From Pseudomonadales bacterium (lineage in GTDB: Bacteria > Patescibacteriota > Microgenomatia > UBA1400 > PJMF01), in NCBI GenBank assembly GCA_020632235.1, contig JACKFY010000003.1, forward strand, positions 29,966 to 93,965: 64,000 bases of DNA, in the 5' to 3' direction. The position numbers and the translations under genes were made by a program. Numbering within the stretch: the stretch's first letter is position 1; each line of letters begins with the position of its first letter. Positions 15,642 to 43,541 of this stretch are shown here, one piece after another. The notes below the pieces were generated by a model. It saw nothing but the letters and a program-made list of their open reading frames with translations, made no database searches and had not been told where the DNA came from.

Positions 15642-16280
15642 ATGGCTCAGCACATCGTTCCTTTTTACCCAAACACGCCAGATAACACCCATTGCTACCA
15701 AGCGGCACTGAAAATGGTGCTCAAGTTTTTTTGGCCAGAGGAAGCATACTCTTTGGATGAGCTGGACGAAGTAACTGCCAAGGTTGATGGGCTGTGGACG
15801 TGGCCGATTGCCGGACTACTGTGGCTACAAGAAAAACACGCCGAGGTGAGCATGATAGATGCATTTGATTTTCATGCATTTGTGAAAGACGGAGGGCAGT
15901 ACTTGCTTGATTTTTATGGAGATGAGGTGGGTAGCGCGCAAATTGCCCACAGCGATATAGAGCAAGAGATTAGTTTTGCCCAGCAGGCTTTAAAAACGCT
16001 TTCGATAGAAAAAAGGAGTGCTCGTATGGCAGATGTGAAGGCACTACTTGAGGATGGATTTCTGGTTATCTGTAACGTGAATGCTAATGCACCCAACAAC
16101 AAAGAGGGGTACACAGGGCACTTTGTCGTTATCACGGGGTTTGACGAGAATGGGTTGTATATGCATGATCCTGGATTACCACCACGGCGCAATCGACGGG
16201 TGAGCTATGAGCACTTTACCTCTGCTTGGGCGTATCCAGATGAAACAGCGAAGTGGTTGATTGCGGTGAGGAAAGTGTGA
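15642..16280 (+). CDS. Peptidase C39-like (papain-fold) domain protein
   Basis: Carries the Cys motif NTHCYQAALKMVL and the His motif YTGHFVVITGFDENGLYMHDPG, typical of C39/C39_2 peptidase domains. No ABC transporter partner nearby. Confidence 0.55.
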   Translation: MAQHIVPFYPNTPDNTHCYQAALKMVLKFFWPEEAYSLDELDEVTAKVDGLWTWPIAGLLWLQEKHAEVSMIDAFDFHAFVKDGGQYLLDFYGDEVGSAQIAHSDIEQEISFAQQALKTLSIEKRSARMADVKALLEDGFLVICNVNANAPNNKEGYTGHFVVITGFDENGLYMHDPGLPPRRNRRVSYEHFTSAWAYPDETAKWLIAVRKV

Positions 16281-16352
16281 GTCCGCTGGGACTATCCGCC
16301 GGTGGGTGGAAGGACACAGAGCTTAAAAAAGTCGGTCGGCTGACGGATCTAA
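16277..16352 (-). repeat. tRNA-Lys-derived partial copy (3' acceptor end, degraded T-region, variable and anticodon 3' half) fused to a hairpin-containing repeat
   Basis: gtgagtccgctgggact (16277-16293) and aggacacagagcttaaaa (16311-16328) are identical to tRNA-Lys segments. The T-loop is replaced by a 17-nt insert. It is followed by a 24-nt repeat unit (aagtcggtcggctgacggatctaa) that also encodes the GIY-YIG C-terminus DPSADRLF*. Confidence 0.6.
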
Positions 16353-16616
16353 CCGAACTAATAGTAACGACCAGAGAAATGACCTACCCCTACTTGACTT
16401 AAGCTGTTTTTCCCTATAAAGAGCAGTGCTTTTTTCTCCGCATAGCTCAATGTAGAGATACTCCCAAAAAGGCGGAAACCTATGAGTAAAGCTTGGTTTC
16501 TTTACCGGTAGTTGTTGATTGTGCTGGTCAAGTCGGTTATTAAGGTGTTGTGTTATGCCAATGTATATTTTGTGTGCAGTGGGATTGTAGATGCAGTACG
16601 TGTAGTATGGCGGTAT
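16323..16616 (-). CDS. GIY-YIG nuclease domain protein (YhbQ/UPF0213-like)
   Basis: PYYTYCIYNPTAHKIYIGITQHLNNRLDQHN is the GIY-YIG core, and ALYREKQLKS follows it. The track ORF (to 16649) uses a GTG inside the tRNA-Lys T-arm, which is probably spurious. The true start is unclear. Confidence 0.6.
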   Translation of the reverse strand: MPPYYTYCIYNPTAHKIYIGITQHLNNRLDQHNQQLPVKKPSFTHRFPPFWEYLYIELCGEKSTALYREKQLKSSRGRSFLWSLLLVRLDPSADRLF

Positions 16617-16693
16617 TGGTGAGTCCGCTGGGACTCGAACCCAGGACACAGAGCTTAAAAGGCTCCTGCTCTAACCAACTGAGCTACGGACCC
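16617..16693 (-). tRNA. tRNA-Lys (anticodon TTT), CCA encoded
   Basis: The reverse complement GGGTCCGTAGCTCAGTTGGTTAGAGCAGGAGCCTTTTAAGCTCTGTGTCCTGGGTTCGAGTCCCAGCGGACTCACCA folds as a canonical cloverleaf with a GTTCGAGTC T-loop and anticodon loop CTTTTAA. Confidence 0.85.
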
Positions 16694-16755
16694 TCACACA
16701 AGCACGTAGTATACCCCACTGATGAATGCTCCGCTACAGATAAAGAAAATCTAGA

Positions 16756-16794
16756 ACACAGAGCTTAAAAAGTCCGTCGGCTGACGGATCTAAT
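16756..16794 (-). repeat. Second copy of the tRNA-Lys-derived hairpin repeat, upstream of tRNA-Lys
   Basis: acacagagcttaaaaagtccgtcggctgacggatctaa matches 16314-16352 with two or three differences. It shares acacagagcttaaaa with the tRNA-Lys anticodon and variable region and contains a CCGTC-ggct-GACGG hairpin. Confidence 0.6.
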
Positions 16795-16951
16795 CTTTAC
16801 CCCGATACTTCTCGGGGAACCCCGCCCCGTCTGAAACCCAACCTCCAGTTGGGATGATGCGAACCCTCAAATCTGCGTGTGCTGTGATATGTCAGAGTGT
16901 TGTACGTATTCTGATTCGTTTGGAAATCTCCCTGCATGCTATCATGCCACT

Positions 16952-42639: not shown

Positions 42640-42870
42640 GAGTACCTTTCGTTTGATCACATCTACTAGTGGCGTCATAATAGCACACGAGGTTCTAGAC
42701 TGCTAGCATGAAGAGCCTCTGGTGTCTTGAGTGCGACCTTGTCCGTTGTGTTCTGTGGCATAGCGCAGTATAATCCGCTTACTAGCCAAAGCTTGGAAAA
42801 ACGGTTTGTGGATGAAGCACGGAGCTGTCTACTGCTGAAAAACAAGCAATACATAGAGTCCTGATACGCT

Positions 42871-42924
42871 GGGATAATCTAGTGGTTATCCCGACACTAG
42901 GTGTCGGGGCACGGAAGAGATCGC
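42871..42924 (+). repeat. tRNA-Asp-derived partial copy with hairpin insertion; upstream copy of a 44-bp direct repeat
   Basis: GGGATAA-tctagtgg-TTATCCC is D-arm-like. CCCGACAC-tag-GTGTCGGG replaces the anticodon 5' half. ACGGAAGAGATCGC matches the tRNA-Asp anticodon 3' half and variable loop. The 44-mer at 42881-42924 is identical to 43314-43357. Confidence 0.6.
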
Positions 42925-42950
42925 GTATAGTAACAATAAGTAGCAAATAT

Positions 42951-43026
42951 GGCCTCGTGGTGTAGTGGTTAACATGCTTCCCTGTCACGGAAGAGATCGC
43001 CGGTTCGAGTCCGGTCGAGGTCGCCA
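42951..43026 (+). tRNA. tRNA-Asp (anticodon GTC), CCA encoded
   Basis: GGCCTCGTGGTGTAGTGGTTAACATGCTTCCCTGTCACGGAAGAGATCGCCGGTTCGAGTCCGGTCGAGGTCGCCA gives a canonical cloverleaf. Confidence 0.85.
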
Positions 43027-43042
43027 AAAAGAAGAAATACGT

Positions 43043-43297
43043 ATGTCTTGGGTCTACATCTTGTGTAGCAAAAAAGATAACTCATATTATGTTGGTAGTA
43101 CCAATAATCTAGAACGGAGAATTGGGCAGCATAACAATGGTTTTTCTCGATACACCAGAGCAAAAATCCCTTGGAAGTTAGTGTATACAGAAACTCATGA
43201 TTCTCTAAAAGACGCTCGAATACGAGAGCAACAACTCAAAAACTGGAAAAGCAGAGTTGCTCTTGAGAGATTGATAGGTAAAAACAAACAGCTCTGA
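43043..43297 (+). CDS. GIY-YIG nuclease domain protein (YhbQ/UPF0213-like), second copy
   Basis: MSWVYILCSKKDNSYYVGSTNNLERRIGQHN...IREQQLKNW. The track ORF (from 42965) runs through tRNA-Asp. The ATG at 43043 lies 17 nt after the tRNA. Confidence 0.7.
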   Translation: MSWVYILCSKKDNSYYVGSTNNLERRIGQHNNGFSRYTRAKIPWKLVYTETHDSLKDARIREQQLKNWKSRVALERLIGKNKQL

Positions 43298-43299
43298 TA

Positions 43300-43382
43300 G
43301 GTCAGGACGGTGTAGTGGTTATCCCGACACTAGGTGTCGGGGCACGGAAGAGATCGCCGGTTCGAGTTCGGTCGAGGTAGCA
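43300..43382 (+). other. Full-length tRNA-Asp-like pseudo-tRNA with a broken acceptor stem and the anticodon arm replaced by an extended hairpin; downstream copy of the 44-bp repeat
   Basis: GGTCAGGACGGTGTAGTGGTTA-TCCCGACACTAGGTGTCGGGGC-ACGGAAGAGATCGCCGGTTCGAGTTCGGTCGAGGTAGCA. The D-loop, variable loop, T-arm and 3' acceptor are close to tRNA-Asp, but the 5' acceptor cannot pair and the 3' end reads GCA rather than CCA. Confidence 0.6.
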
Positions 43383-43541
43383 AAAAGATATTCTAGGATA
43401 TCTTATAACTTGTAAAATCAAGTGTTTCTAAAACTATAAGATGTCTTATAGTTTTACTACTAACTATAGGTCTTTTTTACGCACCAACTGTGTATTGTCA
43501 CATGTAGGTAGTTTGGTATAGTACGACTACGTTTCGTATCT

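Follow-up and report, generated by a model that had tools for sequence, protein, structure and literature searches.

SsnA of Neisseria meningitidis is a single-domain GIY-YIG protein of 94 amino acids (aa) that binds the NTS hairpin repeat only as single-stranded DNA (ssDNA) and cuts a few nucleotides (nt) upstream of it (Chenal et al., Nat Commun 2025; PMC11893778). It is inactive on double-stranded DNA (dsDNA) and on RNA, and Ssn proteins do not bind RNA. The ssnA gene and the genes of many homologues are flanked by hairpin repeats; the identity of the hairpin loop is dispensable, and homologues prefer their own repeats. In Neisseria, SsnA and the NTS repeats modulate natural transformation (PMC11893778). 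Transfer RNA is nowhere mentioned in that paper. Here we describe a locus in a 64,000-nt stretch of contig JACKFY010000003.1 (assembly GCA_020632235.1, positions 29,966 to 93,965; hereafter the window), in which a tRNA-Lys gene and a small GIY-YIG gene are bracketed by partial copies of that tRNA, each carrying a hairpin.

Nuclease genes have been reported at tRNA genes in other settings. SegB is a free-standing GIY-YIG homing endonuclease found in the tRNA clusters of T4-like phages; its association with tRNA genes is statistical, and under its action the tRNA region is inherited preferentially and undergoes segmental (tandem) amplification (PMC2330249; PMC13096335). Group I introns with homing endonuclease genes occur in bacterial tRNA genes (PMC3984707; PMC13011429), including those of Patescibacteria (PMC13011429).

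The original prediction for this locus, made from the letters of the window, proposed the insertion or duplication scar of a miniature tRNA-targeting element with the nuclease as its sole cargo or, alternatively, a tRNA-derived structured RNA. Our analysis suggests that the locus is a selfish or formerly selfish Ssn-like module of nuclease and hairpin that would propagate through tRNA homology, a reading to which we assign, by analogy with Ssn, a probability of about 0.55. Its parts would be a minimal single-domain GIY-YIG gene, the hairpin TCCGYC-N4-GRCGGA of that nuclease family and arms copied from a tRNA gene. The miniature element with a single cargo gene was thus retained, as it recurs in unrelated genomes, while its hairpin, conserved and covarying, is no insertion scar.

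Organization of the tRNA-Lys cassette

ARAGORN, Rfam and Pfam agree with the earlier claim that an intact tRNA-Lys is followed on the same strand by an overlapping GIY-YIG gene (Table 1). The ARAGORN and Rfam calls show no interruption in the tRNA, and the GIY-YIG domain, which is complete (16326-16616, minus strand), begins directly after the tRNA CCA. The open reading frame (ORF) has no ATG: its sole canonical start is a GTG at 16649, within tRNA-Lys, and an ATA comes after the CCA, at the start of the domain. Counted from the end of the tRNA, the ORF spans 16323-16616 (minus strand) and encodes 97 aa, or 108 aa as annotated; the Pfam GIY-YIG domain covers nearly the whole protein, every residue invariant in the subfamily is retained, and the identical protein in NCBI is a 108-aa "GIY-YIG nuclease family protein". 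The end of the ORF does lie inside the downstream repeat, as had been noticed, but this repeat provides its final 9 codons, not 8, together with the TAA stop, contributed by the anticodon loop. The whole unit measures about 340 bp. Only the tRNA and the 97-aa ORF stand between the repeats, and the flanking genes encode a C39-like peptidase and Fpg, in agreement with the reported lack of an integrase. The C39-like peptidase gene (15642-16280, plus strand) has its TGA stop within the 3' acceptor fragment of the downstream pseudo-tRNA (GTGAGTCC), so that a dead tRNA-Lys copy now supplies the end of this gene.

A repeat search combined with a mismatch search found again the two repeats that bracket the unit, at 16314-16352 and 16756-16794 (about 39 nt; about 40 bp in the original prediction). 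Three families of repeated sequence are involved: the anticodon 3' half with the variable region (16306-16328, 16638-16660 and 16748-16770), the hairpin (16326-16352 and 16767-16793, 96% identical) and the 3' acceptor strand (16277-16293 and 16619-16635, identical at 17/17 nt). The 18-mer GTCGGCTGACGGATCTAA occurs twice, against 0.02 occurrences expected by chance. Read in the orientation of the tRNA, both repeats contain a piece of the D-loop (TTAGA), a 16-nt hairpin, the 3' half of the anticodon loop, the 3' strand of the anticodon stem and the variable region. Because the D-loop piece and the anticodon 3' half flank the hairpin, the latter in effect substitutes for 8 nt of tRNA-Lys, which are the D-stem 3' strand, position 26 and the anticodon-stem 5' strand. 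The description of the repeats as chimeras was correct for their tRNA-Lys segment; the hairpin, which had been taken as a local novelty, is a conserved element of the nuclease family found across phyla.

The two copies differ in extent and preservation. The upstream one (copy B) ends at the junction of variable region and T-stem, and its right arm matches tRNA-Lys over 17 nt save for one extra T in the T-run. Its hairpin is intact and, folded as ssDNA, reaches -6.0 kcal/mol (z = -3). The downstream one (copy A) runs through to the tRNA 3' end and contains, in order, the D-loop piece, hairpin 1, the anticodon 3' half with the variable region, hairpin 2, the T-stem 3' strand and the 3' acceptor strand. 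Hairpin 2 occupies the place of the T-stem 5' strand and T-loop. The additional acceptor segment had been recognized correctly, whereas the "17-nt insert" in the T-loop is better read as this second copy of the hairpin family, which carries one mismatch. In hairpin 1, on the ORF side, a G-to-C change abolishes the fold (-0.8 kcal/mol), so that of the two predicted hairpin repeats only that of copy B folds. The Lys copy looks to be in early, partial decay, since an ATG is lacking and only one of the three hairpins is free of mutation.

Two further features were seen at these repeats. The anticodon-loop T-run that follows the hairpin is longer in the repeats (5 and 6 T at 16773-16797 and 16323-16347) than in the tRNA (4 T), and the copy B hairpin with its T-run scores as an intrinsic terminator on the strand of the tRNA, just upstream of tRNA-Lys; this hairpin may have a secondary use as a terminator. 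Directly adjoining copy B is a perfect hairpin, CCCCGA-TACTTC-TCGGGG (16800-16817), whose stem resembles the pseudo-tRNA hairpins ACCCCGAT-ATG-ATCGGGGT at L206, a locus with a homologue of the second GIY-YIG protein of the window (see below). It could be the remnant of another module.

Recurrence of hairpin-split tRNA copies

The same hairpin adjoins homologous GIY-YIG genes in metagenome-assembled genomes (MAGs) of Ignavibacteriae and Bacteroidota and on many unclassified metagenome contigs, where it sits in a partial copy of the adjacent tRNA: Lys, Asn, Met, Val or His. An Ignavibacteriae MAG (L001) has two GIY-YIG genes in tandem after tRNA-Asn, and behind each of them comes GGTTGTAAGTTCGA/TCCGTCAGCCGACGGA/TTACTCGCGGAGCA, which is the 3' part of tRNA-Asn with the 16-nt hairpin in place of 3 nt of the T-loop. 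The hairpin substitutes for 10 nt of a tRNA-Val copy at L002 and for about 10 nt of a tRNA-Met copy in two Bacteroidota MAGs (L019 and L077), so the substituted stretch in these four loci is 3-10 nt. At L137, next to tRNA-Lys(UUU), the layout exactly matches that of the window, with the same 8 nt substituted.

We mapped ORFs, tRNAs and hairpins at 80 further loci obtained by a protein-based scan of metagenome contigs. Two layouts were found: [hairpin-pseudo-tRNA] - tRNA - ORF - hairpin-pseudo-tRNA (type A) and hairpin-pseudo-tRNA - ORF - tRNA - [hairpin-pseudo-tRNA] (type B). The hairpin thus stands in a dead partial tRNA copy across the ORF from the tRNA, and often a second dead copy lies beyond the tRNA. 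Associations were counted on 60 distinct homologue ORFs from metagenomes with enough flanking sequence. A same-strand tRNA directly adjoins the ORF in 54 of them; a hairpin lies within 110 nt of the ORF in 49/60, on both sides within this distance in 10/60, and on the side opposite the intact tRNA in 44/60. The substituted nucleotides are fixed for each tRNA species: 15-17 in the D-loop for Asn (type B), 23-30 for Lys, 37-46 for Met, and 25-34 or about 46-52 for Val. The arm between ORF and hairpin is short. At 41 loci it has diverged further from the resident tRNA than has the outer arm, and at 14 the reverse holds; such a bias would be expected of an inner arm carried along with the ORF and an outer arm made of local sequence.

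In 49 of 73 cases a protein and its nearest neighbour in sequence have the same tRNA partner and the same layout, where 16 would be expected, and switches of partner occur among relatives (Lys-UUU/Lys-CUU, Val/Met, His/Lys). Tandem arrays are present at L001, L126 and L154. Pseudo-tRNAs with two hairpins placed like those of copy A, one in the D region and the other in the T arm, were found at L126 (tRNA-Lys) and L154 (tRNA-Asn), and L132 holds a full-length tRNA-Lys bearing the hairpin. The contig ends close to the ORF at many loci, a kind of break that repeats tend to produce. The arrangement is widespread and apparently undescribed: in a search of full-text literature, with poor coverage of subscription journals, no description was found of the hairpin sequence or of a GIY-YIG gene with hairpin-split tRNA copies.

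Some of these loci are particularly elaborate. At L154 (2430-2750), the intact tRNA is followed by three pseudo-tRNA-Asn units in tandem, each of which keeps the anticodon arm and acceptor; a T-type hairpin (TCCGTC/GACGGA stem) replaces the D-arm and a C-type hairpin (TCCGCC/GGCGGA stem) stands in the T-loop, giving a structurally coherent, tRNA-like unit. On contig Ga0210050_1000769 (L128/L129), six GIY-YIG ORFs of the family are interleaved with Leu, Pro, Gly, His, Arg and Lys tRNAs and a 'Pyl(cta)' call, an arrangement that looks like the gain of a separate module by most tRNA genes of the cluster.

Conservation and pairing of the hairpin

Across these loci the conserved hairpin is the 16-nt TCCGYC-NNNN-GRCGGA, with a stem that covaries (T:A to C:G) and a free loop. 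A de novo search, in which perfect pairing was the only sequence assumption, found a perfect hairpin beside 84 of 102 ORFs, its stem 6 bp or longer and ending in CCGYC. The stem is TCCGCC/GGCGGA in 71 distinct contexts and TCCGTC/GACGGA in 21, with 0 discordant combinations, and 20 different four-base loops occur, many of them non-palindromic. Conserved pairing with a free loop points to a base-paired hairpin rather than a dimer-binding palindrome; an operator for a dimeric protein is out, loops such as AAGA, GAGA and AGTG being non-palindromic while the stem stays paired. As judged from these sequences, the hairpin goes with the nuclease family and does not derive from tRNA. Despite the switch between T:A and C:G, no intermediate with a G:T pair (G:U-type) was found among about 90 hairpins, and such strict Watson-Crick pairing seems to suit DNA somewhat better than RNA. 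The hairpin type follows the protein tree weakly (p = 0.03); a search of the proteins for residues that separate partners of T-type and C-type hairpins found none.

Scanning genome contigs for the exact hairpin gave at least 120 loci, where a rough chance expectation for the collection is a few hundred. Among the matches listed, many of them likely due to chance, a GIY-YIG ORF adjoins 4/131, and 18 of 126 solo hairpins form the tip of a longer hairpin (expected, 1.6%). These longer hairpins are unrelated and several are terminator-like (L013, L096, L097, L105, L069, L119 and others), with no GIY-YIG gene nearby. A scan of viral contigs returned 86 concordant and 37 discordant stem variants, none of them beside a nuclease gene; most of this is noise, and it gives no evidence for carriage by phages. 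Rfam recognized only tRNA in the whole window at gathering thresholds, and no other family on either cassette of the window at E <= 10.

The tRNA-Asp cassette

The architecture recurs in the window at tRNA-Asp, as had been predicted, with a 77-nt repeat (83% identical), a perfect 8-bp hairpin and an 84-aa GIY-YIG ORF laid out as at the Lys cassette (42848-43386, plus strand). The protein is 28% identical to the Lys-linked one (BLASTP), and both nuclease genes of the window have hairpins on both sides, as can be the case in Ssn systems. The Asp hairpin is a different one, CCCGACAC-TAG-GTGTCGGG, repeated at 43323-43341 in the downstream pseudo-tRNA-Asp; it substitutes for 14 nt, which comprise the D-stem 3' strand, the anticodon-stem 5' strand and part of the loop. 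The upstream repeat keeps about 17 nt resembling the 3' end of the Asp-linked ORF, so it descends from an earlier unit of ORF plus pseudo-tRNA. The Asp copy looks intact. Three homologues of its protein follow the same rule of tRNA and pseudo-tRNA, each with its own hairpin, in a Patescibacteria MAG at tRNA-Glu, on a read-archive contig at tRNA-Lys and in a Flavobacterium MAG at tRNA-Met.

Table 1. Features of the two cassettes of the window.
Feature	Position	Strand	Basis or remark
Downstream pseudo-tRNA-Lys (copy A)	16277-16360	-	repeat searches, hairpin search
Hairpin 2 of copy A, degenerate C-type, TCCGCC-GGTG-GGTGGA	16295-16310	.	TCCGCCGGTGGGTGGA, one mismatch to family
Single-domain GIY-YIG nuclease ORF	16323-16649	-	Pfam PF01541, E = 5e-14
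Hairpin 1 of copy A, minus-strand TCCGTCAGCCGACCGA	16332-16347	.	one stem position mutated; codes part of ORF C-terminus
Intact tRNA-Lys(UUU), encoded CCA	16617-16693	-	ARAGORN; Rfam tRNA, 69.1 bits
Upstream pseudo-tRNA-Lys fragment (copy B)	16756-16794	-	repeat searches, comparison with tRNA
Intact 16-nt hairpin of copy B, minus-strand TCCGTC-AGCC-GACGGA	16773-16788	.	family TCCGYC-N4-GRCGGA
Asp upstream repeat: GIY-YIG 3'-end remnant, then pseudo-tRNA-Asp piece with hairpin	42848-42924	+	repeat and hairpin searches
Hairpin CCCGACAC-TAG-GTGTCGGG of upstream repeat	42890-42908	+	perfect 8-bp stem
Intact tRNA-Asp(GUC)	42951-43026	+	ARAGORN, Rfam
Second GIY-YIG ORF, 84 aa, ATG start	43043-43297	+	Pfam, E = 6.5e-20
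Downstream pseudo-tRNA-Asp, 3' half complete	43281-43386	+	repeat, hairpin and folding analyses

The nuclease family and the source genome

Identity to the Lys-linked protein is 40-53% among its nearest homologues, and the family matches amount to 3,752 clusters at 50% identity (E <= 1e-10), with subfamily lengths mostly of 80-125 aa. According to Pfam, the window proteins consist of the catalytic domain alone, without the linker and DNA-binding domain of SegB or I-TevI type. Their matches to TIGR01453 and to PHROG families cover about 35 N-terminal residues and lie far below the cut-offs, the PHROG homing-endonuclease matches being weak and confined to the N-terminal motif; PADLOC and NCBIfam models likewise gave weak, sub-threshold matches only. 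Many gene calls in the family (P0207, P0209, P0212 and others) have an N-terminal extension of 30-40 aa or a fused second domain. These probably start inside the upstream tRNA or pseudo-tRNA, as does the annotated window ORF, or fuse tandem copies.

The closest relatives of the flanking C39-like peptidase are found in bins of Patescibacteria, the Candidate Phyla Radiation (CPR): Pacebacteria, Shapirobacteria and Levyibacteriota. The label of the source, "MAG: Pseudomonadales bacterium", is probably wrong. Homologues of this gene are at most 59% identical, and in the three contexts inspected neither synteny nor a tRNA was found.

A model for propagation through tRNA homology

The proposal of a selfish or formerly selfish module draws on the anatomy of the loci, its recurrence across phyla and tRNA species, the conservation and covariation of the hairpin and its linkage to the protein family, the tRNA-specific positions and the tandem arrays. 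By analogy with Ssn, the nuclease would bind its hairpin in ssDNA and nick a few nt away, so that the nick would fall inside the tRNA-homologous arm. The nicked end could then recombine with tRNA sequence: with a neighbouring copy as partner, tandem arrays would result; the alternative partner would be the naive tRNA gene of another genome after DNA uptake. The module would be copied in along with a duplicated stretch of tRNA, and one functional tRNA gene would consequently always survive. tRNA sequences would in this way serve as portable homology arms across species. The layouts seen match the outcome of a single crossover, or of one-sided repair, in which a tRNA gene meets a unit with a hairpin-split copy of it, the crossover being expected on the side that leaves one tRNA intact. 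The outer arm of type B is only 14 nt long, which would suggest a break at the edge of the hairpin rather than ordinary homologous exchange.

We tentatively raise the possibility, at less than even odds, that such loci form a new class of minimal mobile element, in which a nuclease specific for hairpins in ssDNA and devoid of a DNA-binding domain would spread between distant bacteria, CPR included, by means of universal tRNA homology arms and would escape counter-selection through duplication of its target instead of splicing. This would amount to homing without intron or intein. In a stronger version, which is possible, the tRNA-derived arms would act as a nucleic-acid guide placing the nuclease on the tRNA gene.

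Several points weigh against propagation by this route. An occupied and an empty allele were looked for in this organism and no such pair was found, and we therefore infer present-day mobility from distribution alone. The exact Lys-linked protein is also encoded in GCA_020429115.1, the single further assembly that exists for the organism; this assembly is 99.88% identical over 3.3 kb, and the cassette shows no difference at all. The tRNA partner tracks protein phylogeny strongly, as long vertical inheritance would also give. GIY-YIG enzymes cut DNA and do not join it, so every joining step would have to be host recombination. A nuclease that requires the hairpin would not readily account for the targeting of a naive tRNA gene, and the model leaves unaccounted for a constant 16-nt hairpin that replaces 3-10 nt. 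The published SRM motif of the Ssn repeats, HGTCWYN(0-2)YYVSBRHN(0-5)WNVSBRGN(0-2)RNCYNB (PMC11893778), matched nothing in the 64-kb window or in the 500-nt flanks of 103 related ORFs; it did find the NTS control. Finally, the nearest solved structures are UPF0213 proteins (1ywl, E = 7e-9; 1zg2, E = 5e-7), then SLX1.

Alternative explanations

The locus might be an Ssn-like nuclease domesticated to the benefit of its host, with hairpins at tRNA genes, that restricts incoming ssDNA or modulates recombination or integration there and is inherited mostly vertically. SsnA and NTS offer a precedent in the natural transformation of Neisseria (PMC11893778), and the tracking of the protein tree by tRNA partner and layout, the identity of the cassette in two assemblies and the solo hairpins away from nuclease genes, with their excess at the tips of longer hairpins, would all fit. 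We nevertheless hold this unlikely, as copies decay (in the window, the Lys copy without ATG and with mutated hairpins) and no defence-system model matches convincingly; tandem arrays, six nuclease ORFs in one tRNA cluster (L128), switches of tRNA species among close relatives and a patchy distribution across phyla look like selfish turnover. It is quite improbable in our estimation that the hairpin pseudo-tRNAs are functional RNAs, co-transcribed with the tRNA and the nuclease mRNA and acting as a protein handle, as protection of the mRNA end or as a terminator; in the extreme form of this idea, tRNA-derived arms of the RNA guide the nuclease to the tRNA gene. The covariation of the stem and variation of the loop would be natural for such RNAs, as would the common strand of ORF and tRNA with almost no spacer and the terminator score of the copy B hairpin with its lengthened T-run. 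Some pseudo-tRNAs are also cloverleaf-like: L154 keeps anticodon arm and acceptor, with the D-arm swapped for a hairpin and the T-loop extended by one, and the hairpin-bearing tRNA-Lys of L132 is full-length. The lack of G:U-type intermediates suits DNA pairing better, however, the Ssn relatives do not bind RNA (PMC11893778), a terminator lies between tRNA and ORF at several type A loci, and the ORF-side hairpin of the window is already broken. The Rfam search, which returned tRNA alone even at E <= 10, tells against this reading and disposes of a known small RNA. The tRNA-derived structured RNA put forward originally as the alternative is the less favoured one.

Partial duplications of a tRNA gene also call to mind an integrase, whose insertions into tRNA genes typically leave such copies, and the repeats could then be attL/attR-type scars of an island in tRNA-Lys, or else what is left of a group I intron and its homing endonuclease. 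Patescibacteria do harbour group I introns in their tRNA genes (PMC13011429). We consider both origins highly improbable: a unit of about 340 bp without integrase, one repeat that lies upstream of the tRNA as well, a foreign conserved hairpin that replaces tRNA nucleotides within the repeats and a layout that recurs with the nuclease as its only constant gene do not fit them. The island is contradicted by this anatomy, with no integrase between the Lys repeats, and the intron was rejected because neither cassette gave an Intron_gpI match at E <= 10 and the tRNA is uninterrupted.

Implications

Should propagation through tRNA homology prove true, a very large group of proteins annotated as "hypothetical GIY-YIG nuclease family protein" would drive a simple, overlooked form of genome change at tRNA genes. 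It would account for many partial tRNA genes, tandem arrays of tRNA fragments and contig breaks beside tRNAs in metagenome assemblies, as well as for gene calls that read through tRNAs. Ssn-type ssDNA nucleases would gain new hairpin specificities and a new genomic niche, and each lineage would offer a ready pair of nuclease and hairpin for ssDNA tools. The locus would then be a concrete case of a nuclease that behaves as a mobile element without a DNA-binding domain or strand transfer.

Comparison with known systems

Integrase insertions in tRNA genes typically leave partial tRNA duplications (attL/attR, with a duplicated 3' part of the tRNA). The cassettes share with such islands the intact tRNA and the displaced partial copy that marks the far end. 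They differ in having no integrase and a size of 0.3-0.4 kb, in that the duplicated parts may be 5' or 3', in the constant foreign hairpin that replaces 3-10 nt and in the further copy often found beyond the tRNA. REP/BIME elements with RAYT and the IS200/IS605 elements rely on hairpin-recognizing HUH transposases (discussed in PMC11893778). A small gene flanked by cognate hairpins, solo copies and a likely action on ssDNA are common to them and the cassettes. They are not embedded in tRNA, however, and the fold and chemistry of their enzymes differ from those of GIY-YIG hydrolysis, which has no covalent intermediate and therefore no strand-transfer activity.

Group I introns resemble the cassettes in tying a nuclease gene to a tRNA gene while tRNA function is preserved; the cassettes have no ribozyme, their tRNA is uninterrupted, and its function is kept by duplication and not by splicing. 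With SegB they share a GIY-YIG nuclease gene among tRNA genes, and the segmental amplification driven by that nuclease is a functional parallel. SegB is, in contrast, larger, two-domain and phage-borne, it cuts dsDNA at a site recognized by the protein, and neither a conserved hairpin nor hairpin-disrupted pseudo-tRNAs accompany it.

The closest likeness is to the Ssn systems: a single-domain GIY-YIG protein of about 90 aa without a DNA-binding domain, a gene bordered on one or both sides by a lineage-specific hairpin repeat whose loop identity is unimportant, and a repeat-gene-repeat appearance that resembles an insertion sequence. The hairpin sequence differs, and the activity of the cassettes is proposed by analogy only. 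What sets them apart is that their hairpins lie in partial copies of the adjacent tRNA and that the intact tRNA is part of the unit. The cassette is thus, by this analogy, best filed as a tRNA-nested variant of Ssn-type nuclease/hairpin modules.

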